From assembly GCA_000004985.1 (NCBI GenBank), contig GG738849.1: 64,000 nt of DNA. One strand, written 5' to 3'. The translations under genes were made by a program, and so were the position numbers. Source of the stretch: Naegleria gruberi. Its lineage: Eukaryota. Positions 23,641-42,005 of this stretch are shown one piece after another; the stretch's first letter is position 1; each line of letters begins with the position of its first letter. The notes beneath the pieces are model-generated. The model ran no database searches. It was not told the origin of the DNA and saw only the letters and a list, made by a program, of their open reading frames with translations.

Positions 23641-26604
23641 TCATTTTAATTGTTTGTGACTGGCATTACTTGTGTTCAGTTTGGAATTAATTTTGTGTAA
23701 AGATCTTGGAGAGACAGTTCCCTGTTTGATAATATTCAATTCCTCACTCTTTTTAAGAATTTTCCTCTCAACATCTGGATCAATATCTTTAATTTCCTTT
23801 CTCTTCTTATCTATTAAAACTTTCTTAATAAATGACTCAGATAATAGCTTTGGTTTTACAGAAAAACTGAAACTTTTTTCTGAAGCTGACAAACCAGATC
23901 TTGGTGACTCGTCGTGGAATTCATTTTCCCATTTCTCTAACAGAGTCATTTCCTTCTTTTCATTTTTCATTTTGAAATGAGTTTTCTTATTGTAAATTAC
24001 TGTATTTGAGAAGAGTCCATCTCCGCCTACAGGTTTAACAAATGATTCACTTTCTTTTTTGTATAGTATATGATTGGTTATTCCTTCATCCTGTTTGGCA
24101 GTGAGAAATTCTCTTAATCTGTGTTGAGTATCGACACTACTTGGCTGATGAGGAATACCTCCAATCAAGCCGTCCAAATACCCGCTATAGAAATGTTTGT
24201 GACGTAGGGGGACATAGTTTCGTGTTGGACGGTTGCCTGACTTGATTTTGAAGCTAAGATTGTGATCAGAAACTTGGGTGATTAAGCAATCCACCAGATC
24301 GTGATTTTCCTTCTTTTCTCGCACAAATGAAAGGAGGAATAGTAGAAATCTTTGAATTTTTGAAAAGAGTAGATATTTCCTCATTTTCTTCTTCCTTTCC
24401 TTCTCGAAAAATTGAAGGAAAATTCTGATAAATTGGGAAAAGGATTGAATATTCGAAAAGCAAATATTATTTCCAAAATCCAAATGTTTGTGACCACTAA
24501 CAATGGATCGTTCATGTCTAATCAACAATTCCTCCATTACATCTGGAGAATATTTACAAAATTCTAGTAATCCTTTGGCAGAAACTGATTTCAAATGGCT
24601 CAACAAGTTACTATTACAAAAAATTAAAATATAATGTTCTGCTACCATTTCCAAATCTAAATTACTCCAAATGTGGTCTTTGGAGAGAATATTTGTCAAC
24701 ATTTGGAAACAACTTATACGCTGATACAGATAGCTGTTGTAATCTTCATTACATCTGATAACATTGAGTGCCTTACTGTACAAAATGTTCCAAAAATCAA
24801 ATATTGGTGAGTTGGCTATTACATTAAAATACTTAATTATCTAAACACTATATGAGTCAACTTACAATGTTGTGCATAAGCAGCAATAAGTGCAACTACC
24901 TTTCCAGAAAGACTGAAATTAGTAGAGGTGATACTTTCAATAATTCGTTGTAGCTTTTTTTCTGACAAAATTTTCAAATTAGCATTACCAGAGCTTCCCT
25001 TATTGGCTGCAATTGTATTGTTATCATAAATATTTTCCAAATAACAACAACTTACCACTATTTACATAGGATATAACAATATTTAGGCAGAGAATTATCT
25101 TTTTCTGATCATGATTTTGACTTTCTAGAATATCCAACATTTTGTTAATGGCTCCAGAATGCATGAAATATAATCTAAACTCTTGTGTATCAGAAATGTC
25201 TGATAGAATATGTAAAACCCCCATAAACACATCGTATTCATCAATGTCAGTATGTGATGTTGTTATGAAACAATTCACTGCTGCCTTTACAATCCCATAC
25301 TGTTTCACAAAAATTGTGGCATATTCCTTATTTCTTAACATTCTGGCAAGGGTTTTCACTCCCCAATATTTTGAAGTTCTATCTTTGAAAGCTAATTGTG
25401 GGGAAAGTATATCGCCACCACCTGCATCAATAATTTCCTTCTGGAATCTTTCTATGGCTGACATGTGGTACACTACTTCGTCGCAAACTCGTCTCACATC
25501 CCTTGAGATTGTTTCCTTGATAGTTGTCAATAGAGATGGTACAAAAGTTGTGGAGAAGAGGTGAGACTTTTCATAGATCCAATCCTTCTTTACAAATGAT
25601 CTGAGAACAACAACTTGAATGAGCTCGCATGAATTTGATCTCAAAATCCATTCTACAAATTCCAAGTTTTGATATCTATCAATAAGAGCTATAATCTTGT
25701 GTTGTTTGGATTCTCTCACTATACAATCAAATGTCTTGGCAATACAGTGTTTGGTTAAATAGTCACGTTCTTGATATCTGTTCATCAAAAATACTATCAT
25801 TTGATGGTTGTCCAGAAATGGATCAATCGTGTACTGATTATTAATTAAATTGAAACAAGTATTGGCAGCTGATCTTTTCGTCTCCACATGAGTAATGGAG
25901 GTGTTCATGAGTGATCTCAACATATTGACCAATTCTAATTTTTCTGCATGCATCATACTCACAGCAATTTTCTCAAATTTTGTAAAATTACCAAATACTT
26001 TAGCTATCAAATCAACCATTGTAATATCTACTTCTCTGTATCCTTCTATATGTTTCCTCAATACATCCCCCAATAGTTCCAATCCCCAAACTTCAATCAC
26101 TCTCGAAGCACAATCTCCTCTCAAATCAGACATGGCAAGAGTTTTAAAAACTTCTTGCAATAGTTCAATATTTTGTTCCTTTTTAAGGAGACACATTATT
26201 GGAAGGAGAGCTCCATCAGAAACAAATCTTCCACTGCTACAAGGATGTTGAGCTAATAATCCAGCACATCTAACTGCCACTATCTGACATGGAACATTCA
26301 TTGATGAAATAATTGGTGCCAACACTTTGAAACATTGTTTTTCCTTAACCAATTTCTGAGTATATTCCTTCTCCTTCGCCAAATTACATAATGCCATCAA
26401 ACAATACTGAATAATTTGTAAATTCTCTACATTTCCAATTAGATGTAAGATGGCATCCAAGGCATCAATGACCAATAAGAGCTTTGTTTTCTGCTCCGAT
26501 AAATAAAAAAACAATTTACTACTCTCCAATTTAGAATCCTCTCCTCCTTTAAACGAAATTAAAATGTAATGATCGATGGTTCCTCCCGAAGTATTGGCTC
26601 TCAT
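23641..26604 (-). CDS. Large armadillo/HEAT-repeat protein, 3 exons (about 955 aa), function unknown
   Basis: Exon A is 26604..about 25036 (ARM-like helical repeats). Exon B is about 24988..24852 (ANKGSSGNANLKILSEKK...AAYAQH). Exon C is about 24801..23641. The introns are about 47-50 nt (GTAAGT..TTGCAG, GTAAGT..GTAATAG) and phases are consistent with the ORF-track frames. Intron edges are approximate. Confidence 0.5.
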
Positions 26605-27259: not shown

Positions 27260-29737
27260 ATGAACTTGGATCTATGCATACTGGCATGTTCGTCAACAGA
27301 CAAAACACAACAATTAAAAATGTCAGCACTTCAACCATCTGTGGAACCCATTCGATTTATTGGTCAGAAATCAGAGAGTGGCAATACACCAACAATAAAT
27401 GTTCCATTTAAATCTATTGTTAGTCATGCAATGGCATCAACTATTGTGGATCCGTTCAGTAATAAGAATGAAGATATTCCCTTCTCTCTCTTTCTATTTG
27501 GTGGTCAGATAAATAACAAAAGAAGTGACGGAATGTTTGAGTGTCGTATTGAAAAGATGGTTGCCTATGATGAGAAGGAAGTTCAAGATTTATTATTGGA
27601 AACAAAAGTTGCCAATAATTCAATGTTGACCATTACAGAATTTATCACTTGTGAGAAGAGGGATGGTTGTTGGCCATCTGCTCGATCTCATCATCAAATG
27701 GTTTATAGACCACCTAATGATGAACATATTGATGGAAGTTTGGTTTTATTTGGTGGACAAGATAGTCAATTTAAAGCACTTGGAGATTTATATGAATTTG
27801 ATATTCATACTAGAGAGTGGAAACAAATAGTTGAACAATCTGGTCAATTGTGGCCTACTCGTAGACATGGACATTCAATGATATATAGACCTAGTAAGGA
27901 CAGTCTTGTAATTTTGGGAGGTGTTGATACACTAAACAGAACTATTTTTGAACCATTCGAATATCTATTCCCTGAAAAAAAATGGAAAAAGATTGAATTA
28001 ATAGCCAAGACTGGTAGTGCACTCTCCCTGACAAGCACTTCCTCTATTGATCCACTCTGTTTAAGGCCTCGTGCTAATCATTCTGCTGTTTTGTACAATG
28101 CTCAAAATTCAAGATTTGTTCAATTTCACACTTTGAACAATGCAGAAACTGTTGAGGATGGAACTCAAGATGTTATGATTATATTTGGAGGTAATAATGA
28201 ACAGGATTATTACAATGACATGTTTTCTATCAATCTTGGTACTTTGAACGTCGATATTATTATGAGTTCGCATCGTATTAATGTCTATCCTCGAATGAAA
28301 CATACGTGCATTATTACACGAGGTGAAAAGGCCTTGGTTATTGGTGGAAACAGAAAAGCCAGATATGATGAAATGAAAGTCGTCTCTGGAAAGACTTCAA
28401 AATCATTCTTCATGAGTGTTTTGGGAAGTATAGCACCAAAATCCAGCATTGATGCACCAATTCTCAATGGAATGGTAGCCAGAAATTTAATTACCGATTT
28501 TACTGTTAAAAATCAAGAAGCAGAACTTGATTTTAATGACATTTCACATCATACCACATGCAGTGTTTCTCCTTCATGCTTTATCTTTGTTGGTGGTCAA
28601 TTCAATAATGTTGGCGAAAAGATGACCACCAATACAAAGAATGACAAGATTTGGGTTTGCAATTTGGGTCAGTACTCTGAAACTATTGAAAAATTACAGA
28701 ATGCTGAACAAAAGAAAGAATTTGGAAAGGAGTTTTACAGAAGAATGCTAGACAATTTGGGAGAGTATGGACCTATCGGATATGATTTGAGAGTTAACGT
28801 ACTCAATGAAAAGACGTTCCTTGTTCACAAATTTATGCTCTCCAGATTTGAATATTTTAGAAAGCTCATCAAAGAACACTCCTCTCATCAAGTTGGAGGC
28901 ATTGTTGAGATACCAATTTCTGATGCTTCAGTTGATACAATCAGTAATGTCATTGACTACATTTATGGTATTGAACCACCAGTTTTTAGCAATCCAGAAG
29001 AAGTCCAAATCCTGACCAAATATTGTGAGAAACACTCTATGGGATCAATTGTCAAATATACTCATGGAAAGGTTTATCTCCAAAGATCGGATTATGAATC
29101 CTACTTGCCAGAAATTCAATTACTTTTATTCTTCAAGAGAGTGTACATGGGAGAATTCCCTGAATTGCATCAATATTTCAATTCTACTGTTCGTCTAATT
29201 ACTCAAGGTGAAAATGCAGAAAACACCAATATTGATATTCAACTTCCTTTGCAAATTCTTGTAAATAATGATTTTTTCCATGGATGTTTAAGAGACTTGT
29301 ATATCAAACACAAACTGCACGGTCAAGATTCTCAAAATTACATTATTGAAATTGATAATTCAATTTTCCCATTCCTCGACACTAGCTATTTTCCAATTAT
29401 TGAAAGATATATTGCCACTCTCTATCAGGCACCAGTTCATATTTTTAGCTCTGAAGGAGAAGCTGTAGTTTCACAACTCATTCAATTATATTTGGTCAGT
29501 AATTTATTGAGTGATACATATATGGAAGTATTGATTATGGACTCAATCAAGAGAAGAATTTCATTTGAAAATGCATTCCAATTGTTATGTTTTGCTTATC
29601 AACATCAATCACCTAATGAAGTTGTATTCATTTACAATGAATGTATTCGAAAGTTGAAGGAAGTTATTCCGTTGGAAGATGTGAACAAAATAATCAATTT
29701 CCTCAATCAAGAATACGCCAAACAATTTGATATTTAA
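27260..29737 (+). CDS. Kelch-repeat protein with C-terminal BTB/POZ domain(s) (LZTR1-like order: Kelch then BTB)
   Basis: 825-aa ORF with ATG at 27260. The N-terminal half has six Kelch-type blades (LFGGQ, LVLFGG, LVILGG, IIFGG, ALVIGG, IFVGG). The C-terminal half has a BTB (YDLRVNVLNEKTFLVHKFMLSRFEYFRKLIK) and a second BTB/BACK-like region. Confidence 0.7.
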   Translation: MNLDLCILACSSTDKTQQLKMSALQPSVEPIRFIGQKSESGNTPTINVPFKSIVSHAMASTIVDPFSNKNEDIPFSLFLFGGQINNKRSDGMFECRIEKMVAYDEKEVQDLLLETKVANNSMLTITEFITCEKRDGCWPSARSHHQMVYRPPNDEHIDGSLVLFGGQDSQFKALGDLYEFDIHTREWKQIVEQSGQLWPTRRHGHSMIYRPSKDSLVILGGVDTLNRTIFEPFEYLFPEKKWKKIELIAKTGSALSLTSTSSIDPLCLRPRANHSAVLYNAQNSRFVQFHTLNNAETVEDGTQDVMIIFGGNNEQDYYNDMFSINLGTLNVDIIMSSHRINVYPRMKHTCIITRGEKALVIGGNRKARYDEMKVVSGKTSKSFFMSVLGSIAPKSSIDAPILNGMVARNLITDFTVKNQEAELDFNDISHHTTCSVSPSCFIFVGGQFNNVGEKMTTNTKNDKIWVCNLGQYSETIEKLQNAEQKKEFGKEFYRRMLDNLGEYGPIGYDLRVNVLNEKTFLVHKFMLSRFEYFRKLIKEHSSHQVGGIVEIPISDASVDTISNVIDYIYGIEPPVFSNPEEVQILTKYCEKHSMGSIVKYTHGKVYLQRSDYESYLPEIQLLLFFKRVYMGEFPELHQYFNSTVRLITQGENAENTNIDIQLPLQILVNNDFFHGCLRDLYIKHKLHGQDSQNYIIEIDNSIFPFLDTSYFPIIERYIATLYQAPVHIFSSEGEAVVSQLIQLYLVSNLLSDTYMEVLIMDSIKRRISFENAFQLLCFAYQHQSPNEVVFIYNECIRKLKEVIPLEDVNKIINFLNQEYAKQFDI

Positions 29738-29860: not shown

Positions 29861-30661
29861 ATGGTAGAATCTTCATTAAGTATCACAGACGGTATTGAAT
29901 GGTTGAAGCAAGAACATCAACTTATCAGACAATTATTCGATTCATGGCATAACTCTCACATACAGCACGAACGAAATGCTATCGTTGAAAAGTTTATCAG
30001 TGAAATCTGTATCCATGCAAGTATTGAGGAAAGATATGTCTATCCATTAATTGAGGAGAAAGTTCGTGGTAGATATGGTAAACTATTATCAGATAGAAAC
30101 TATCTCGATGACCAATTGAATAAGGAAATGCTTCAATTCCTAATGGACAATGTCAATGAATTGAAGAATGATAATGAAAGAAACATGTTCAATAAGGTAG
30201 TTGAGAAATTCATCACCATTGAAACTGATCACTTGAAACAAGAGGAGGATGATGTCTTTCCACTCTTGAAATTAGCACTCACATCTCAAGAGCTGAAAGA
30301 AATGTGTGACAATCTCAAGAATGGACGAACATCAGCTCCAACTCATCCTCATCCAATGAGCCCAATGAAGTTTGGTAGTAAAATCTTGCATCCAATTGCT
30401 GGAGCATTCGATAAGATTATGGATAATATGGGAATGGGTCTGAATCAACATTTAGATTTACCTCCACTTACTGAAACAATTGAAGAATCTGTCAGCACTC
30501 AAGCAAAACCATTATTGGAATTTGATACTCCAACTACAATTGGAAATGTTGAGAGTAAGCAAATGACTGATGTACCATTGACTACCTTGCAAGAACCAAA
30601 ACAAAAACAACCAATCTATGTGGAGAATGAATCAATTTTCGATACTCCTTCTAATTTGTAA
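29861..30661 (+). CDS. Hemerythrin-like (HHE cation-binding) domain protein
   Basis: 266-aa ORF. It has two H-x(3)-E-containing helical pairs (WLKQEHQLIRQLFDSWH..., IHASIEERYVYPLIEE, HLKQEEDDVFPLL). Confidence 0.55.
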   Translation: MVESSLSITDGIEWLKQEHQLIRQLFDSWHNSHIQHERNAIVEKFISEICIHASIEERYVYPLIEEKVRGRYGKLLSDRNYLDDQLNKEMLQFLMDNVNELKNDNERNMFNKVVEKFITIETDHLKQEEDDVFPLLKLALTSQELKEMCDNLKNGRTSAPTHPHPMSPMKFGSKILHPIAGAFDKIMDNMGMGLNQHLDLPPLTETIEESVSTQAKPLLEFDTPTTIGNVESKQMTDVPLTTLQEPKQKQPIYVENESIFDTPSNL

Positions 30662-30765: not shown

Positions 30766-32538
30766 TTATTTCTTTTTGGGATTGAAAGAATGAAAAGTCA
30801 AACCTGTTGATTGATCCTTAATAGGTTGTTCTGTCTGGTCAAATGAGTGGAAAGTCCAAGAAGAGGAAGAAATACTAGCCGAATGCATGTTTGATTTCTT
30901 AGGAGATTGTTCAGCAGAATTAACGGATGGATAGTTTGCAACAATTTGAATGGGTTGTGAATTATTGTTCGTCCAAACAGGAGGAGCAGTACCACTAACA
31001 ATCTGTATTGTTGTTGCAGGTTTTCTTTCCTGTTGTGTTGAATTTGCAACATTGTTAGCAGTGGTACCTGTTGCTGCTGAGACATTCTTATTGGAAAGTG
31101 ATGATTGCTGACTATTCGATTGTTGTTGTTGAATTGATAGAGTATTACTTGGAACACAACCTTCAAAATCAGAATTTGTAAAGGTTGGGAAATTGCTAGT
31201 TACAATAGATTTAGATGATTTGCTAACCTTGGCAGCTGAACCTTCTACATTATTTCCTGTGCTGTTTCTCTTTTTTGGATTTGGTGAATCGCTATTCTTC
31301 ATCATTATTTGATTGGATGGCATGTAATCAATGTGTGATAATGGTTGTGCATAATTATTGGAATAGTCAGTAATTTTGAATTGACCTAAAGGAGGTTGAG
31401 AAACGTGGAATTGATGAGTAATATTCTTAGTAGCATTAGTTTGATTATTATTATTTACAATTTGAGTGGACGGTTGTGCCTTAATTGGTTCATAATTTGA
31501 AAATTGAATTGTTTGTGACTGATTAGTGGAAGGTTGATAGTTTGTAAATTTAGTATTGTTTGTTTTTTTCAGTGATGTTACATTTGGTTGTTGCACTGTT
31601 TGCTGTTCTGATAAATTAATTGTTGACATCATTGGTGGAGAAGATTGAATTGGTTGTTGTGGTTGTGGATTTGCAAAATTATGAAATGTAAAATTGTTTG
31701 GAATGTTTGATTCTTTTGGTTTGTTGTTCTTCTTCTTGGATTGACCTGGTTGCATGGGAGACGATTGATTGACTTGTTCAACAAAAACCAGTGGTTGATT
31801 ATTTATCATTACCTGTTCCGAAATGGTAGTAGTTGTAATAGTGTTATTACCAATTGATTGTTGTTGAATTCGTTGTTGATGTTGTGGTTCAAAGACTTGT
31901 TGAGAATCATTTCCTCCTTGTTTGTTGAAATTATGGAACACTAGAGTTGTATTCATTCCATTGTTATTATTATTGGATGACATCAATGTTGTCTTTGATT
32001 GTTGTTGTTGAATGGATATCATATTATTAGAAGATGGAAGGAGGGAATAATTATTATTCAATGATGGTGATGATGTACTAGTGGTGGTGGTTATGATTGT
32101 TTGTTGTAAATTATTGTTATCCTCTCCATTCTGATTGATGGAGGATGTATTATTTCTATTCAGCATTGAAAGTATCACCGATTGATTGTTATTATTACTT
32201 GCACTCATCAGCATGATATTATTATTAGTCTTATTAATATTCATTTGTATCGATGGTGGTATATTCTCAAGAGTGTTGTTATCTTTTGATTGAATTGTTG
32301 ATGTGATTGTTGTTGTTGGTGGTGGTGGTTGATAGTTTACATTTGAACAAGTATCATTGGTAAGGGTTTCTTCCCCTCCGCTTATTGGTAGAGTTGTTAA
32401 GTTATCATTGGTGGAAGCTTCTACATTCTGACCATCAGATGGTTCCATGACATTCCTCAGCAATGATGATGCCGATTCTGATTCTGATGCTGGCGATGGT
32501 GCAATATTATTGAATTGCTGACTTGTTGCTTGGCTCAT
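30766..32538 (-). CDS. Q/N/S/T-rich low-complexity (prion-like composition) protein
   Basis: 590-aa ORF with a real ATG at 32538. Long poly-Q/N/T runs are encoded by (CAA/AAC/ACA)n and no globular domain is recognisable. The codon use is coding-like, which is typical of dictyostelid low-complexity proteins. Confidence 0.45.
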   Translation of the reverse strand: MSQATSQQFNNIAPSPASESESASSLLRNVMEPSDGQNVEASTNDNLTTLPISGGEETLTNDTCSNVNYQPPPPTTTITSTIQSKDNNTLENIPPSIQMNINKTNNNIMLMSASNNNNQSVILSMLNRNNTSSINQNGEDNNNLQQTIITTTTSTSSPSLNNNYSLLPSSNNMISIQQQQSKTTLMSSNNNNNGMNTTLVFHNFNKQGGNDSQQVFEPQHQQRIQQQSIGNNTITTTTISEQVMINNQPLVFVEQVNQSSPMQPGQSKKKNNKPKESNIPNNFTFHNFANPQPQQPIQSSPPMMSTINLSEQQTVQQPNVTSLKKTNNTKFTNYQPSTNQSQTIQFSNYEPIKAQPSTQIVNNNNQTNATKNITHQFHVSQPPLGQFKITDYSNNYAQPLSHIDYMPSNQIMMKNSDSPNPKKRNSTGNNVEGSAAKVSKSSKSIVTSNFPTFTNSDFEGCVPSNTLSIQQQQSNSQQSSLSNKNVSAATGTTANNVANSTQQERKPATTIQIVSGTAPPVWTNNNSQPIQIVANYPSVNSAEQSPKKSNMHSASISSSSWTFHSFDQTEQPIKDQSTGLTFHSFNPKKK

Positions 32539-32719: not shown

Positions 32720-33613
32720 CTAGAGAACGTCCTCATCATCATCAAACATGTTATTTGAACTCATTCCCTCACCAGACATGTCTTCTTCACTGGTGGGTGA
32801 ATTAATAATGTCAATATATATCTCTGATTGTTGCTCTCTTTTAACTAAAAAATCAATTTCAACCTGAGACATTAAGCCATTACCATCAAATGATAAAGTA
32901 TGATTGGTGGCAAATGCTGGTTTGTTTAAATAACTTTGGAAAGTAATCTTTACCTTGACTGTGAAATATCCCCAACCAAATCTTGTCAACTCAAATGGTG
33001 CTTTATCCACAACAACTACATTGGGTTTAAATGTTGGATGAAGTCTATATTCTACACTATGAATGAAATCCGAAACATTCTCTCGACTGTCCATTCTGAC
33101 AAACATGGTCCACTTGTGAATGTTTTGATCCGACCTAGATATTACCGTATGCTCGTTTCCAATAAAGAATGACTTACGAATTGTTTGTGTCTGTACATAT
33201 TCTCTTCTCTCCTTCTCCACTTCCAATCTTCTCATCTCGTATTGTTCTTTAAAAAGCATGGGTAGTACATTCCGAAGTGTTAAAAGAGGACGAATATTCT
33301 TTAACGTAATCAGTGAATTATTACCATCACTGAATGGGGCTCTACAACAGGGACATGCATTCATAGAACCATTACTAGCTAATAATCTTTCAATGCAAAA
33401 TTTACAAAAGGTGTGACCACAGTGGAATCCTACAGGTTCGTATAATAAATTTAAACAGAGTGGACATTCAAAATCTGATATTACCGGATTACTGTTGTTG
33501 TTGTTATTACTACTATTTATCGGAGTGGTGTTATTTCCTGTGCTTGTTTGTTGACGTGATGTGGTTGTTGTTGTTAATGGATTCAGACTGTTGTTATTAT
33601 TATTGATAAACAT
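32720..33613 (-). CDS. RING-finger (C3HC4) + YEATS-domain protein
   Basis: The N-terminus is CPLCLNLLYEPVGFHCGHTFCKFCIERL...CPCCRAP (RING). The C-terminus is HKWTMFVRMDSRENVSDFIHSVEYRLHPTFKPNVVVVDKAPFELTRFGWGYFTVKVKITFQ, matching the YEATS consensus (H-x-W-x-VFVR ... F-x-LH-x-SF ... GWGEF). Confidence 0.75.
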   Translation of the reverse strand: MFINNNNNSLNPLTTTTTSRQQTSTGNNTTPINSSNNNNNSNPVISDFECPLCLNLLYEPVGFHCGHTFCKFCIERLLASNGSMNACPCCRAPFSDGNNSLITLKNIRPLLTLRNVLPMLFKEQYEMRRLEVEKERREYVQTQTIRKSFFIGNEHTVISRSDQNIHKWTMFVRMDSRENVSDFIHSVEYRLHPTFKPNVVVVDKAPFELTRFGWGYFTVKVKITFQSYLNKPAFATNHTLSFDGNGLMSQVEIDFLVKREQQSEIYIDIINSPTSEEDMSGEGMSSNNMFDDDEDVL

Positions 33614-34213: not shown

Positions 34214-36614
34214 ATGCTTCCACAACAAGGAATGACTTCAGGTACATCTGCTTCATCCTCTATCAGTGGTACTGAGCACGTTAATTTTCAGGAAATTGTT
34301 TCATCACTCCATAATGAAAATGCTATAGAATCAGCCCTTTACAAGGATGCTTCCAATGTTATCACTGATAGATTGGAGTTTGGCATTACTGTTGATGCTA
34401 TTCTTGTTAAACCTAATGTTGAAGGAAGTAATGATACCGTTGTTGAAAAGATTTGCAATGCTGTCAATGAAAATGGTGTTTCTATGCTCAGATCAGCTCT
34501 CGGAACAACAGTCATTGATCAAGGTACTATTAGAGTTGTTATGCACAATGGTCGTGTTGAAGTTTGTGGACCAGGTAAGTTTTATTGTGGTTGTGATGAA
34601 ATTTTTAACACATACTTTTGGATATTCTTCCAATATCATGTTGTGATGATCATTTCTACCATTATAATTTACATTGAAATAATAACAGGAAGATACATGA
34701 GAATTAATCCAAGAGCTCACTGGAGTGACACCTACAATTTGGAAAATGATGTTATTGTTCACGAAACTTTGAAAATTATTCGTATAAGAAAGGGTTATTA
34801 TGGCTTGGCTAATTTGAACGGACAACCTTTAATTCTCGGAGAGGGTTTGCACGTTAGAAATACCAGATTATTCTCTTTTAAGGAAGCTAAGGAAATTAAC
34901 CAAGAAAGAATTGAACATGGTACCATTAATATTTTGAGAATTCCTCAAGGGTACTATGGTAAGGTTATTGAGAATAACATTCCTAAATTGTTGAAGGCAG
35001 GTAATTATGTCGTTGATAGTGCTCTCTTCAGTTATCATGGTTTAGTTTCAATTAACGAAACTCATATCAAGCACTCTACCATTCAAATTATCAGAATTCC
35101 AAAGAGTTCTATTGGTTTAGTCACTGTTGGAACCAAGCCTTCATTATTGCAAGAAGGATTGTATATTTTCAATGATCAAAATGTTACTTATAATGGAATG
35201 AAGGATATTACAGACTCAGTAATTAGACATCCTCCAATTACTAGATTTAGAGTTACTTTGGGTGAGTTGGCTCTCTGTTGGTACAAGAGTGTCCCTGTCT
35301 TTATTTCTGGTGAGTAGTTTTTCTTGATTGTTATGATGATTTTAACACTTTTCAATCCAGAACCTCAAGTTTATGAAGTTAACAGTACTGACTTTTTATT
35401 CGAAAAGTGTGTACCTGTGAAAACCAAGACTATTATTTTGGGTTCATCAATGAGAATTATTGTTAATGAAGGTGAAGTTTGTGTTACTTACAAACGAGGT
35501 AAACTGGATATTCTTAATCCAGGTACCTTTGTTTTCACTAATGAATTGGATCGTACATTCGAATCATACATGTCAACTAGATTAATGTCCATTCCTTTGA
35601 TTGAAGATGTTTCCAAGGAAACCTTCTTGAGATGTGACACTCGTGACTTTGTTGAAGTTGGTATTAGAGCTGCTGTTTCATTTAGAATTTCTGATCCAAA
35701 ATTGACTTTAACTATTGGTAAGTAGTAGTATTTTTGAAAACAGTTCTTATATCTTCTCAGTTGGTAATGAAGCTCAAACCATCAAATTAATTAAGGATCA
35801 AAGTATTGCTGCTTTGCAAGCCATTGTTAGATCTACTGCATTGAATCAATTGGCTCAAAACAAGACCATTCCAGCCTCTGAACTTAAAGAACAAAATACT
35901 CAAACAAGTGATCACAGTGATCCTAATGTTTCTTCAAATCCATCAGCTCCACAATTCTTTGAAAACCTTCACGATGAATTCATTTCAAAACTCCATGACA
36001 CCTTCAAGAAGAGTTATGGTATTGAAATTGATAATATCCGTATTGAAGATTTCCAAATTATAAATCAAGAATTGGCAACAAACATTTCCAAACAAGCCAT
36101 CATTACTGCTGAAACCAGTACCAAATTGGCCAACTTGGAAGCTCAAAGAGAAATTGAATTGGCTGGTCAAGAAAGATTGAATTCTATCAACTCTATCAAG
36201 GCTACTGCTGAAGCTTTCAAATTAAAGACTGAAACTGAAGCCAAGAATAATGCTACCATTATTGAAGCTGAAACTAAGGCCATTGAAATCAAGACACTTG
36301 CCAAGGCCAGAGCTGAAGCTCTCACTATTGAAGCAGAAGCTGAAGCCAAAGCTATTGAAATTAAGGCTCTTGCTGAAAAGAAGAGAGCTGAATATTTGAG
36401 TTCAACTGAATTTGGTAAACAAGAAGCTCTCTTGACAAAACACCACGACATGGTTGTTCAAGCCATGAAGAGTGTTTCTCAAGTTGTTTACCTTCCTAGT
36501 GATGCAAATATGGGTTGCTTGCCTTTGCAAATGTTTGGCATGCAAGGTGGAATTCCTAATTTCGATAGTATTACTAAGGATGCTGGCAGAAGTAATGGTA
36601 GAAAAAAAGACTAA
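34214..36614 (+). CDS. SPFH/band-7 family protein (flotillin/vacuolin-like), 4 exons, with N-terminal tandem degenerate beta-hairpin repeats
   Basis: Exons are about 34214..34574, 34688..35309, 35361..35717 and 35761..36614. Donors are GTAAGT, GTGAGT and GTAAGT, all phase 1. The C-terminus is a flotillin-like coiled coil (EAEAKAIEIKALAEKKRAEY), the core is an SPFH domain, and the N-terminus has repeats (see findings). Confidence 0.7.
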
Positions 36615-39045: not shown

Positions 39046-42005
39046 ATGCTAACGAAACTAAAGAACTCTTTCAGAAAGAAGGGAGCATCCAATTCTACTG
39101 AAGAATCGTCTTCCTCCTCTGAAAACATTGGTAATCAGTCCATTACTAGATCATTTCACAATTTAATTCAAGACAAAACAGAAAAAACTCAAGAAGTGAA
39201 AGAAACTAAACAACGAAGAGAAAGTGAAGGATATCTATTGTTACATTTGATAGGAGCAAGTAATTTACCATCGGCTGATGCTAACGGATTGTCAGGTATG
39301 TTGTGATGAAAAAAATTGATGAATTTTAATTGATGATGAAAATTTGATGGATGACATTTAGATCCATTCTGTAGTATCAAGATTAAAAACACAGGTCTCA
39401 GTGAATCAGAGGAACAATATCAAAAAACTGAAGTAATTAAGAAAGAATTGAATCCACATTGGAATTCATTCTTTTTCTTTGATGTGATTGAATTTAATGG
39501 AACTTTTGTAGAGTTTGAGGTTTATGATTATGATAGACTTTCAAAGAATGAGTAGGTTTTTATTTACTTTGGTTGAATTTTCTAATTTTGGAAATTTTAC
39601 AAAACAATTTAAATAATTTAAAATATTTAAAAATATAAATTTAAAACAACAAGTTTATTGGGAGGATGTGCATTTAATATTAAACTATTAACACCATGTG
39701 TTCAAACAGAATTATCTATTGGATTAGATACTAAAGGAACAGTTGACTGTAACATGATGTACATTCCACAAACAACTTTTGGTTTCTTGATGAAGAAATG
39801 TATTGAAACAAAGAACATGTACATTGATAGGGATTTCCCTGCCACCACTACATCCATTTGTCATAATGAAACCTTTTTATCAAGTAAGGGAATTGACCCT
39901 TCTTCCATTAGTAAGTTTTTCACACATACACACACTTTAAAATTCTTAAAATTCTTCATAATTTCAAACGCACAGATTGGATGAGACCTAAAGAATTCTG
40001 TAAAGGATCTCTGAGACCAGAACTTTTCCTAGCAGGTGTTGAACCAGCAGATATCAGACAAGGTAAAATTGGTGATTGTTACTTTTTGGGAGCTATTGCA
40101 GTTGCAGCATTGCATCCAAAATTAATCAAATCCTTGTTTATTCCATCTGCCTATAATGAATATGGTATCTATCAGATTAAAATGTTTTATAATGGTATTT
40201 GGCAAGAGGTCATTATTGATGATTATGTTCCAGTGGTTGTCTCTTCAAAGATTGAACAAAAATCAAGAAGTAATTATGCACCACTTTTTGTAAGATCAAC
40301 TGATTTGGAAGAATTATGGGTAATTTTATTGGAAAAGGCATATGCTAAATTACATGGATCATATGAAGATATTGAAGGTGCTCATTCAATTCGTGAAGCA
40401 TTTGAACATTTAACTGGTGGTTGGTCAGATGCTATCGAATTAGCTCCATACATGAACGGTAAAAAATCAAATACTGACCTATTTAATAACATGTTGGAAT
40501 GGAAAAAGAATAGACATTTGATGGCAACTTCAACTGCTAGTGATAATGATTTTGATTTTGAGAATTATCTTGTTCCTAATGATAATGGTATAGTTCCAAA
40601 ACATGCCTATTCAATTCTAGATGTTCGTTATGTTTCAAAAGAGGAAAGTCCTGAAAATATTCCATATCAACTTGTCAAATTGAGAAATACATGGGGTAAA
40701 ACTGAGTGGAAAGGTAAATTCGCTGATGATTGGGAAGGATGGACTGATGCATTGGCTAAAAAACTCAATCAGGTTAATAGTGATGATGGTTCTTTCTGGA
40801 TGAGCATTGATGATTACGTTGAACAATTTAATTACTTGTACATTTGTCGTGTTCCAATCACTGATGGATTTATTAGAGAAATTTCAGCAATTCCAGTTGA
40901 TTTGGATATTAAAAAGATGATTAAGGAAAGAGCTAGTAATGCACACATTATTTTCGATAAGAGAGGAGGAGCATGTGAGTGGAATCAAGAACTTTATCAA
41001 AATGCAGGTGGACAAATTTATTTCAAGGAGAGTTTCTTCCAAAACCCACAATTTAGATTGACCATTGATTTACCACCATCTTTAGCGAATCAAGATGATA
41101 CAGCAAGTATTTCAGATTTTAAATCAAACATGATTCGTATCATTGTTTCTATTCGTATAGTTGACGATGAAAAGACAAAGGATGCCAAACGAAAGAAACA
41201 AACCAAACCAAATCCTCTAGGTCTATACGTTTTCAGAAATAGAAAGGCACAAAAATCTGGCAAGTATGCCTTAATGGACTTTCCAGATAATGCAGCTGAT
41301 AGAGTTGGAGAAACCAACATGAAGAAATTGAGTCGTGATGCTGTGGAAATTTATCTCCCAAGACCAAATCCAAAGAAATACGAACAGGAGAAACAAGAAG
41401 GATTGCACGATTATACCATTGTGGCAAGTCGTTGGTATCCTAATACAGAAGGTTCATTTGCTATTCAAGTTTGTTCAGATTACAAACATTTACAGTTTGA
41501 GGCAATTGATGGATCTCAATCAGCAGCTGCATTTTGTAAAAAGGTTATTAAGAGTGAGTGGAATGGAGTGGACTCATGTGGAGCTCATTGGCAAACATCA
41601 ACCTTTTCTACCAATCCAAAATTCCTTATTCAATGTAAGGAAATTCCTAACCACCCACAAGGTAGTGAAGATTCTCAATTTATTAGAAATGCTGTGAATA
41701 TTTATGTGGAATCTGAGAATGGAAAGATACCATTCTTTCCCTATGTAGTTTCATTGGTCAAGTTTAAAAAGTGGATGCAACAATCTGTACTGCAACCAAT
41801 CACTGAAGATCAATGTGTTCTATTTCCACCTAATGGAAATGAGTTCTTTACCATTCGTCATTCTTTTGATTGTGAGTTGGCCTGCAGAAGAGATAAACCA
41901 GTTTCATACTTGCTCATCTTGGGAACACCTTACAAGATGGCTGGAAAATTTACAATTGTTGTTAAGGCTGAACAAGAAATTACTATTGAACAAGTTTCAC
42001 TCTAA
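39046..42005 (+). CDS. Calpain-family cysteine protease with N-terminal C2 domain, 4 exons (908 aa)
   Basis: Exons are 39046..39295, 39362..39551, 39654..39910 and 39976..42005 (2727 nt, in frame). Donors are GTATGT, GTAGGT and GTAAGT. Exons 1-2 encode a C2 fold (LSG|DPFCSIKIKNTG...FEVYDYDRLSKND). The catalytic triad contexts are QGKIGDCYFLGAIA (Cys), VPKHAYSILDV (His) and VKLRNTWGKTEWKG (Asn). Confidence 0.8.

Follow-up and report, generated by a model that had tools for sequence, protein, structure and literature searches.

The gene described here lies on the minus strand of a 64,000-nucleotide stretch of Naegleria gruberi DNA (contig GG738849.1), the whole of which is called the window below. 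It codes for a protein of 297 amino acids (aa) in which an N-terminal RING finger is joined to a C-terminal YEATS domain by a conserved linker (Table 1). A preliminary description, made from the DNA letters, had proposed a single open reading frame (ORF) of this length, and the ORF indeed runs from an ATG through its stop codon as one unbroken frame in the raw DNA. The translation agrees residue for residue with the annotated protein XP_002681875.1 (EFC49131.1; UniProt D2V2W3; locus NAEGRDRAFT_63139), so an ORF-calling artefact is excluded. The database name of XP_002681875.1 is only "predicted protein". The preliminary description had taken the host for an amoebozoan, but N. gruberi is a heterolobosean and belongs to Discoba. 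It had also pointed to a low-complexity N-terminus rich in Asn and Thr; the first 44 residues contain 15 Asn and 9 Thr (55% Asn plus Thr), are unconserved in orthologues, and are predicted to be disordered, with a predicted local distance difference test (pLDDT) score below 50.

Table 1. Features of the RING-YEATS gene and annotated neighbours in the window (coding sequence, CDS)
Feature	Position	Strand	Basis
Complete single-exon CDS, RING-YEATS protein (297 aa + stop)	32720..33613	-	ORF and identity to XP_002681875.1
aa 1-44, Asn/Thr/Ser-rich low-complexity N-terminus, unconserved, predicted disordered	33482..33613	-	sequence, orthologues, model
aa 47-95, C3HC4 RING	33329..33475	-	Pfam, PDB sequence matches, conservation
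aa 96-141, conserved linker, two predicted helices	33191..33328	-	model, LONRF comparison
aa 142-258, YEATS immunoglobulin-like beta-sandwich	32840..33190	-	Pfam, PDB matches, model, Foldseek
aa 191-195, LHPTF: cage His192, Thr194, Phe195	33029..33043	-	alignment to YEATS2 / Taf14
aa 213-217, GWGYF: cage Trp214-Gly215 ("WG motif"), Phe217	32963..32977	-	alignment to YEATS2 / Taf14
aa 259-297, C-terminal helix, then disordered tail ending in acidic patch FDDDEDVL	32723..32839	-	model, family comparison
ARM-repeat protein (below threshold)	25024..26604	-	Pfam
Kelch beta-propeller with BTB domain	27260..29737	+	Pfam
Hemerythrin-domain protein	29861..30661	+	Pfam
Calpain-type cysteine protease	39981..42005	+	Pfam

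The RING, the YEATS pocket and the linker

Five Pfam RING models (zf-RING_UBOX, zf-C3HC4_2, zf-C3HC4_4, zf-C3HC4_3, and zf-C3HC4) matched aa 47-95 above their cut-offs, and the best sequence matches of the N-terminal half in the Protein Data Bank (PDB) were the RINGs of BRCA1 and TRIM21, and also those of TRIM5 and RNF125. The motifs on which a C3HC4 RING had been proposed earlier (CPLCLN, CGHTFCKFC, and CPCCRAP) are all present, and the eight zinc ligands are complete in the arrangement C50-x2-C53-x11-C65-x-H67-x2-C70-x2-C73-x13-C87-x2-C90. Structural work on RINGs bound to ubiquitin-conjugating enzymes (E2s) has shown that the position of BRCA1 Ile26 contacts the E2, and that a linchpin Arg or Lys after the last Cys primes the E2~ubiquitin (E2~Ub) conjugate. 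In the N. gruberi protein, Leu52 occupies the E2-contact position equivalent to Ile26, and Arg91 stands directly after the last Cys. Among 80 diverse family members, the zinc ligands are kept in all 80, position 52 is Ile, Leu, or Val in 78, and position 91 is Arg in 79 and Lys in one. Judged from these residues, the RING is a canonical C3HC4 finger of the E3-ligase type, and ubiquitin transfer is predicted.

The C-terminal half matched the Pfam YEATS model (PF03366) over aa 164-243 with a score of 85.1 bits, the cut-off being 22 (E=3.2e-24), covering positions 2-79 of the 80 in the profile. The prokaryotic pYEATS model was also above threshold, with a lower score (47.6 bits), and no other beta-sandwich family outscored YEATS on this half in the Pfam scan. 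The pairing of YEATS with zf-C3HC4 put forward in the preliminary description therefore stands, with both models above their Pfam cut-offs and no better-scoring beta-sandwich family. Its consensus motifs were right in the main: HKWTMFVR, LHPTF, and FGWGYF are present, but Tyr and not Phe stands two residues ahead of LHPTF (YRLHPTF). The best PDB sequence matches of the C-terminal half were YEATS2 (1.6e-15), Yaf9, and GAS41.

Consistent with this, an AlphaFold2 model, for which 17 family sequences were aligned, reached pLDDT values of about 86-96 between residue 41 and roughly residue 260, with about 87-96 over the YEATS domain, and contains the RING, two linker helices (111-120 and 122-140; pLDDT 90-96), and an eight-strand sandwich. 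Foldseek matched this model to ligand-bound YEATS structures of Yaf9, YEATS2, and GAS41 with a probability of 1.00, template modelling scores of 0.7-0.79 (target-normalised), and root-mean-square deviations of about 3-3.5 Å. The suggestion that a structure model might reveal an aromatic acyl-lysine cage was thus supported, in that the fold matches solved YEATS domains and the cage is intact by alignment to YEATS2 and Taf14.

In the HMMER alignment, H192, T194, F195, W214, G215, and F217 correspond to YEATS2 H259, S261, Y262, W282, G283, and F285, and mutation of these YEATS2 residues weakens or abolishes binding to crotonylated histone H3 Lys27 (H3K27cr) (PMC4856769). Relative to YEATS2, the Ser-to-Thr and Tyr-to-Phe changes reproduce the residues of yeast Taf14: T194, F195, W214, and G215 correspond to Taf14 T61, F62, W81, and G82, giving the same Thr-Phe…Trp-Gly arrangement. 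In Taf14 the T61 hydroxyl bonds the acyl amide, and F62 and W81 sandwich the acyl group; this Thr/Phe/Trp-Gly set binds crotonyl- and butyryl-lysine, and the W81-G82 "WG motif" is kept in all YEATS members except AF9 and ENL (PMC6212594). By alignment, Thr194 would be the hydrogen-bond donor to the acyl amide and Phe195 an aromatic wall. Across the 80 members, the cage positions are 88-100% conserved (His in 70, Thr/Ser in 76, Phe/Tyr in 78, Trp/Tyr/Phe in 78, Gly215 in 77, and Phe217 in all 80), and W168 is kept in 79. At the level of sequence, the predicted acyl-lysine pocket is complete.

The RING and the linker after it point to a kinship with the LONRF ubiquitin ligases. Residues 26-138 align with residues 280-385 of LONRF1, which comprise its second RING and the linker that follows, with 36% identity over 113 aa (E=8e-18), and the best non-YEATS matches to the family profile were vertebrate LONRF1, LONRF3, and LONRF4 (about 1e-32 to 1e-23). 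The LON domain begins 47-51 residues past the RING in LONRF1 and in a minimal environmental RING-LON protein, and the YEATS sandwich of the N. gruberi protein begins 51 residues past its RING. The LON model (PF02190) matched LONRF1 (1.6e-27) and the minimal RING-LON protein (3.6e-22) but gave no match in the RING-YEATS protein even at E<=10 in the Pfam scan. The protein is therefore not a LONRF member, and only the RING cassette is common to both. The simplest reading of these sequences is that LONRF and RING-YEATS proteins share a RING-linker cassette whose recognition domains are interchangeable. LONRF2 has been experimentally shown to be a ubiquitin ligase that serves protein quality control (PMC10226518). 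The minimal environmental protein (P0028, 336 aa) has its RING at 38-76 and its LON_N domain from residue 124, in the same cassette geometry as RING-YEATS, suggesting that the vertebrate multi-domain LONRFs arose later than a LONRF-like cassette with a single RING.

Extent of the family and its sirtuin relatives

RING-YEATS is a large, widespread eukaryotic family, and the N. gruberi protein is not a lone oddity. The family was defined by an N-terminal C3HC4 RING, a helical linker of about 50 aa, and a C-terminal LHPTF…GWGxF YEATS domain. A word-indexed search found RING-YEATS relatives in N. lovaniensis, Willaertia, Acrasis, and bdelloid rotifers. An exhaustive search of 1.84 billion cluster representatives, with a profile seeded from an alignment that includes the N. 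gruberi protein, returned 188 representatives (50%-identity clusters) at E<=1e-30, most of which match profile positions about 5-220, that is both domains, in one stretch. Pfam found both domains in ten further named or transcriptome-derived representatives.

The members come from Heterolobosea (Naegleria, Willaertia, and Acrasis), Amoebozoa (Balamuthia mandrillaris, Endostelium, and Pyxidicula), Chytridiomycota (Spizellomyces and Gaertneriomyces), Blastocladiomycota (Allomyces, Paraphysoderma, and Sorochytrium), some Ascomycota (Neocucurbitaria, Lophiotrema, Knufia, and Exophiala), and Chlorophyta (Volvox, and Parachlorella with a degenerate RING). The amoebozoan orthologues that the preliminary description had thought worth seeking are thus present. 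Among the named matches, bdelloid rotifers are the only Metazoa (Adineta and Rotaria; P0010-P0014 and P0016-P0020). Horizontal acquisition is common in bdelloids, and their RING-YEATS genes could reflect either such acquisition or deep differential loss elsewhere. In a rough bootstrapped neighbour-joining tree, each major taxon formed a clade, deep nodes were unsupported, and the rotifers did not group with fungi; the taxon clades fit mainly vertical descent with many losses. The Adineta vaga gene (L001, 6001-6729) lies on the 13.9-Mb chromosome CP075497.1, and its 729 nt for 224 aa imply a short intron.

The architecture is closely kept. The RING starts near the N-terminus (median residue 21), and GWGxF follows the end of the RING at a tightly constrained distance, the median being 117 aa among 131 two-domain members. 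Since the residues of both domains and the spacing between them are conserved, the two domains and their spacing appear to be under joint selection; the joint conservation of E2-support and ligand-binding residues likewise argues that both activities are selected. An acidic C-terminal tail was considered as a defining feature and rejected: among the 63 members whose tail is 25 aa or longer, 24 have it, and it is a recurrent accessory only. Two members carry additional sequence upstream of the RING. In Exophiala bonariae (P0164, XP_064705953.1, 869 aa), an N-terminal HET (heterokaryon incompatibility) domain precedes RING-YEATS, an arrangement that might point to a part in conflict or cell death in some fungi. 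A Pyxidicula operculata transcript (P0130, 1412 aa) has CLU/eIF3_p135 sequence before RING-YEATS and may be a chimeric assembly.

A degenerate DNA pattern was built by hand for LHPTF-x17-GWGxF; it gave 1 match in the window against 0 expected, and matched at least 120 metagenome contigs. It had no match in 185,579 prokaryotic species genomes, and a prokaryotic origin or membership of pYEATS was rejected on this count and on the bit scores given above. The pattern also had no match in IMG/VR viral contigs, and the BFVD structure library returned generic RING matches only; carriage by giant viruses as the cause of the patchy distribution was thus rejected at this sensitivity. Among the 122 environmental matches listed, the RING-linker lies upstream in 53 and a sirtuin in 12; the other 57 show neither, and 17 of these are too truncated to be classified. 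The upstream RINGs were counted by hidden Markov model, as a count by regular expression only (40/100) misses RINGs split by introns. The LHPTF…GWGxF signature is accordingly not exclusive to RING fusions.

The sirtuin fusions bear directly on the YEATS half. Pfam confirmed SIR2 together with YEATS in three environmental loci (L020, L048, and L086), and the SIR2-fused YEATS domain is 40% identical to that of N. gruberi over 104 aa without a gap. Because the same subtype is fused to sirtuin deacylases, this YEATS clade is tied to lysine-acyl biochemistry. A published protein with the SIR2-YEATS architecture is Acanthamoeba castellanii AcSir2, whose authors stated that no other SIR2 protein carries YEATS (PMC7376869), and AcSir2 appears to be the only SIR2-YEATS protein described so far. 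The environmental sirtuins fall into one type (L020, L028, L052, L021, and L017) and another (L048, L110, L032, L030, L086, and L094), and two or more sirtuin classes seem to carry a C-terminal YEATS of the LHPTF…GWGTF subtype. The N. gruberi protein itself had no SIR2 (PF02146) match in the Pfam scan.

The genes around the N. gruberi locus (ARM-repeat, Kelch-BTB, hemerythrin, and calpain) are unrelated to it and give no functional clue. The immediate downstream neighbour (30766..32538, minus strand) codes for 590 aa with an extremely high content of Asn, Gln, Ser, and Thr; this ORF has no Pfam domain and contains a recurring FHNF/FHSF motif. On the plus strand, the ORFs 34214..35317, 35324..35725, and 35715..36614 are probably exons of one gene, with at least three tandem repeats of about 45 aa (H.T(I/L).I(I/L)RIP.G(Y)YG…G.P.LL..G…) that loosely resemble the first strands of SPFH/band-7 domains. 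The two of these ORFs that were scanned, 34214..35317 and 35715..36614, had no Pfam match at E<=1e-4.

Proposed function and competing explanations

We propose that the protein is a compact modular E3 ligase, in which the YEATS domain would read acyl-lysine and the RING would ubiquitinate, most likely on histone H3, and we put the probability of this reading at about 0.6. We infer the coupling of acyl-lysine reading to ubiquitination from the conserved residues of both domains. In such a mechanism, the YEATS pocket, with its F195/W214 sandwich, the T194 hydroxyl, G215, H192, and F217, would dock a lysine carrying an acetyl- or crotonyl-type acyl group, and the likeliest ligand would be the histone H3 tail, since all characterised cellular YEATS ligands retrieved are H3 acyl-lysines. 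The RING would recruit and activate the E2~Ub conjugate through the L52 contact and the R91 linchpin, and the structured linker would fix the geometry so that ubiquitin is set near the acyl mark, on a lysine at a fixed distance from it in the same or a neighbouring protein or nucleosome. An acylation signal would thereby be turned into a ubiquitin signal by what is, in architecture, a LONRF-type RING-linker cassette with YEATS in place of LON-N, and acetyl or crotonyl marks on proteins, most likely on histones, would probably decide where ubiquitin is placed. Post-translational modifications have been recorded on N. gruberi histones in proteomic surveys looking for acetyl- and crotonyl-lysine.

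Several observations weigh against this proposal. The 34-kDa protein shows no obvious nuclear localisation signal, though passive entry into the nucleus is possible, and its closest RING relatives, the LONRFs, are protein-quality-control ligases and not chromatin enzymes. The acidic tail, a possible hint of histone binding, is confined to the minority of long-tailed members counted above. The cage His is replaced in 10 of the 80 members, and the geometry of the cage was assessed through the alignment and the matching fold. YEATS2 E284, which is important for binding the H3K27 peptide, is replaced by Tyr here and mostly by Thr or Val in the family; the site specificity of YEATS2 is therefore not transferable, and the target site is not predictable from it.

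Some of the same points would fit the main rival, an active E3 aimed at acylated non-histone proteins, an "acyl-degron" reader by which, for example, acetylated or otherwise acylated cytosolic or metabolic proteins are marked for degradation, much as LONRF ligases pick out damaged proteins. The nearest relatives of the RING and linker are quality-control ligases, no nuclear localisation signal or other chromatin domain was detected, and the YEATS2 peptide-specificity residue is unconserved. In addition, the PDB entries 9x8s and 9x8u show the GAS41 YEATS domain with an acetylated viral capsid peptide, and YEATS domains can therefore bind non-histone acetyl-lysine. We nevertheless consider this unlikely, in view of the H3 acyl-lysines that make up the characterised cellular ligands, the study of the sister architecture AcSir2 with nuclear extracts, and the recurrence in the family of acidic tails typical of histone-binding proteins. 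It is less probable still that the RING is non-catalytic, serving instead, as in p300/CBP, as a zinc module for structure, dimerisation, or regulation, with the protein acting only as an acyl-lysine reader or scaffold. The top matches BRCA1 and TRIM21 are RINGs that rely on dimerisation via flanking helices, and some RINGs in such pairs, for example that of the BRCA1 partner BARD1, are poor E3s alone. However, the residues for E2~Ub activation are nearly invariant (position 52 hydrophobic in 78/80 and Arg91 in 79/80), and LONRF2, whose RINGs are the nearest homologues, is a demonstrated ligase.

A repurposed YEATS domain, which would bind DNA, an unmodified peptide, or another protein while some other cue targets the ligase, seems to us a similarly slight prospect. 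The AF9 YEATS domain also binds DNA (PMC6212594). The cage His is absent in one-eighth of the members, and the pYEATS model is above threshold. We know of no established ligand for pYEATS. Against these points, each cage position is conserved across distant lineages, which is hard to explain if the pocket is unused, the YEATS model scores far above pYEATS (85 vs 48 bits), and the sirtuin fusion of the same YEATS subtype points to acyl-lysine. A chance ORF, or a mis-joined model of two neighbouring genes, has nothing in its favour beyond the general unreliability of protist gene models. It is refuted by the single unbroken frame, by the recurrence of this domain order and spacing at 53 independent loci in environmental DNA, detected at the DNA level, and by RING-YEATS genes and transcripts from five or more major lineages, including the gene on the Adineta vaga chromosome.

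Beyond the acyl-lysine-directed E3 proposed for N. gruberi, a wider interpretation is conceivable, which we advance tentatively and at somewhat less than even odds. RING-YEATS may be an ancient eukaryotic family of acyl-lysine-directed ligases, possibly dating from the last eukaryotic common ancestor, that was lost from yeasts, land plants, and all animals except bdelloid rotifers; it would have been overlooked because it was lost from the standard model organisms. It might further form one arm of a more general "C-terminal YEATS targeting cassette", in which protists attach a C-terminal YEATS to different enzymes, a RING E3 as writer or a sirtuin as eraser. That the family extends over Discoba, Amoebozoa, early-diverging fungi, green algae, and bdelloid rotifers matters for reconstructing the chromatin toolkit of ancestral eukaryotes.

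As readers of acyl-lysine, YEATS domains have been studied intensively, and cancer targets among the proteins that carry them include AF9, ENL, GAS41, and YEATS2. The characterised YEATS proteins are all passive subunits that recruit other enzymes. If the proposed E3 activity is correct, histone acylation would be hard-wired to ubiquitination in one small polypeptide. This would be the first direct link from YEATS to an enzyme for ubiquitin, a minimal testable system for crosstalk between acylation and ubiquitination, and a natural counterpart of the reader-E3 chimeras engineered for targeted protein degradation. The LONRF link would add a case of one RING cassette re-targeted through a swap of its recognition domain. 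An orthologue (SPPG_07111) is present in the transformable chytrid Spizellomyces punctatus (PMC7213984), which makes the hypothesis open to experiment.

Comparison with known systems

No natural RING-YEATS protein is described in the full-text literature searched; subscription-only surveys, such as one of protist chromatin proteins in Int J Parasitol from 2008, were outside its reach, and an earlier passing mention is possible. The text of a broad survey of eukaryotic chromatin readers makes no mention of YEATS, and E3 ligases are not among the catalytic classes that it counts. Automatic labels for the domains already exist in databases, for example "RING-type domain-containing protein" or "Protein AF-9 homolog". 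The closest published description is the AcSir2 paper (PMC7376869). RING-YEATS thus appears to be the first YEATS-based reader-E3 fusion and a sizeable, phylogenetically broad, and undescribed family.

The canonical YEATS readers (Taf14, Yaf9/GAS41, YEATS2, and AF9/ENL) have the same fold and a complete cage. The LHPxF/YKPN…GWGxF sequence is nearest to YEATS2, and the cage arrangement is nearest to Taf14. The preliminary description had remarked that known YEATS proteins do not usually carry a RING, and none of the characterised ones found in the literature has one. Their YEATS domain comes with a module for partner binding (AHD, ET, or coiled coil), and they are non-enzymatic subunits of large complexes. 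In the N. gruberi protein, by contrast, YEATS is C-terminal and covalently joined to a catalytic-type RING, and the Pfam scan found no AHD, ET, or other domain beyond RING and YEATS.

The SIR2-YEATS proteins, AcSir2 and its environmental relatives, are similar in having a C-terminal YEATS after a catalytic head, with the motifs IGNxH, LHPTF, GWGxF, and HxLSF in common. They differ in the head itself, which is a sirtuin deacylase (eraser) there and a RING E3 (ubiquitin writer) here. LONRF1/2/3 share with RING-YEATS a homologous RING, a linker of about 50 residues and equal length, and the order RING-linker-recognition domain. Their recognition domain, however, is LON-N and selects misfolded protein, whereas YEATS presumably selects acyl-lysine, and the TPR and first RING of LONRF are lacking here.

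The fusion of a reader to an E3 is itself a known principle, seen in UHRF1 and in the bromodomain RING proteins TRIM24 and TRIM33. The latter belong to the TIF1 family of TRIMs (TRIM24, TRIM28, TRIM33, and TRIM66), and the bromodomains of TRIM24 and TRIM33 bind acetyl-lysine. The N. gruberi protein had no B-box, coiled coil, PHD, or bromodomain in the Pfam scan and is thus not a TRIM/TIF1 protein. Like the TIF1 TRIMs and UHRF1, it would have a histone-mark reader and a RING E3 on one polypeptide, and its RING resembles TRIM RINGs. Unlike them, it uses YEATS as the reader instead of PHD-bromodomain or Tudor/PHD/SRA modules, is far smaller at 297 aa, and has another phyletic distribution.

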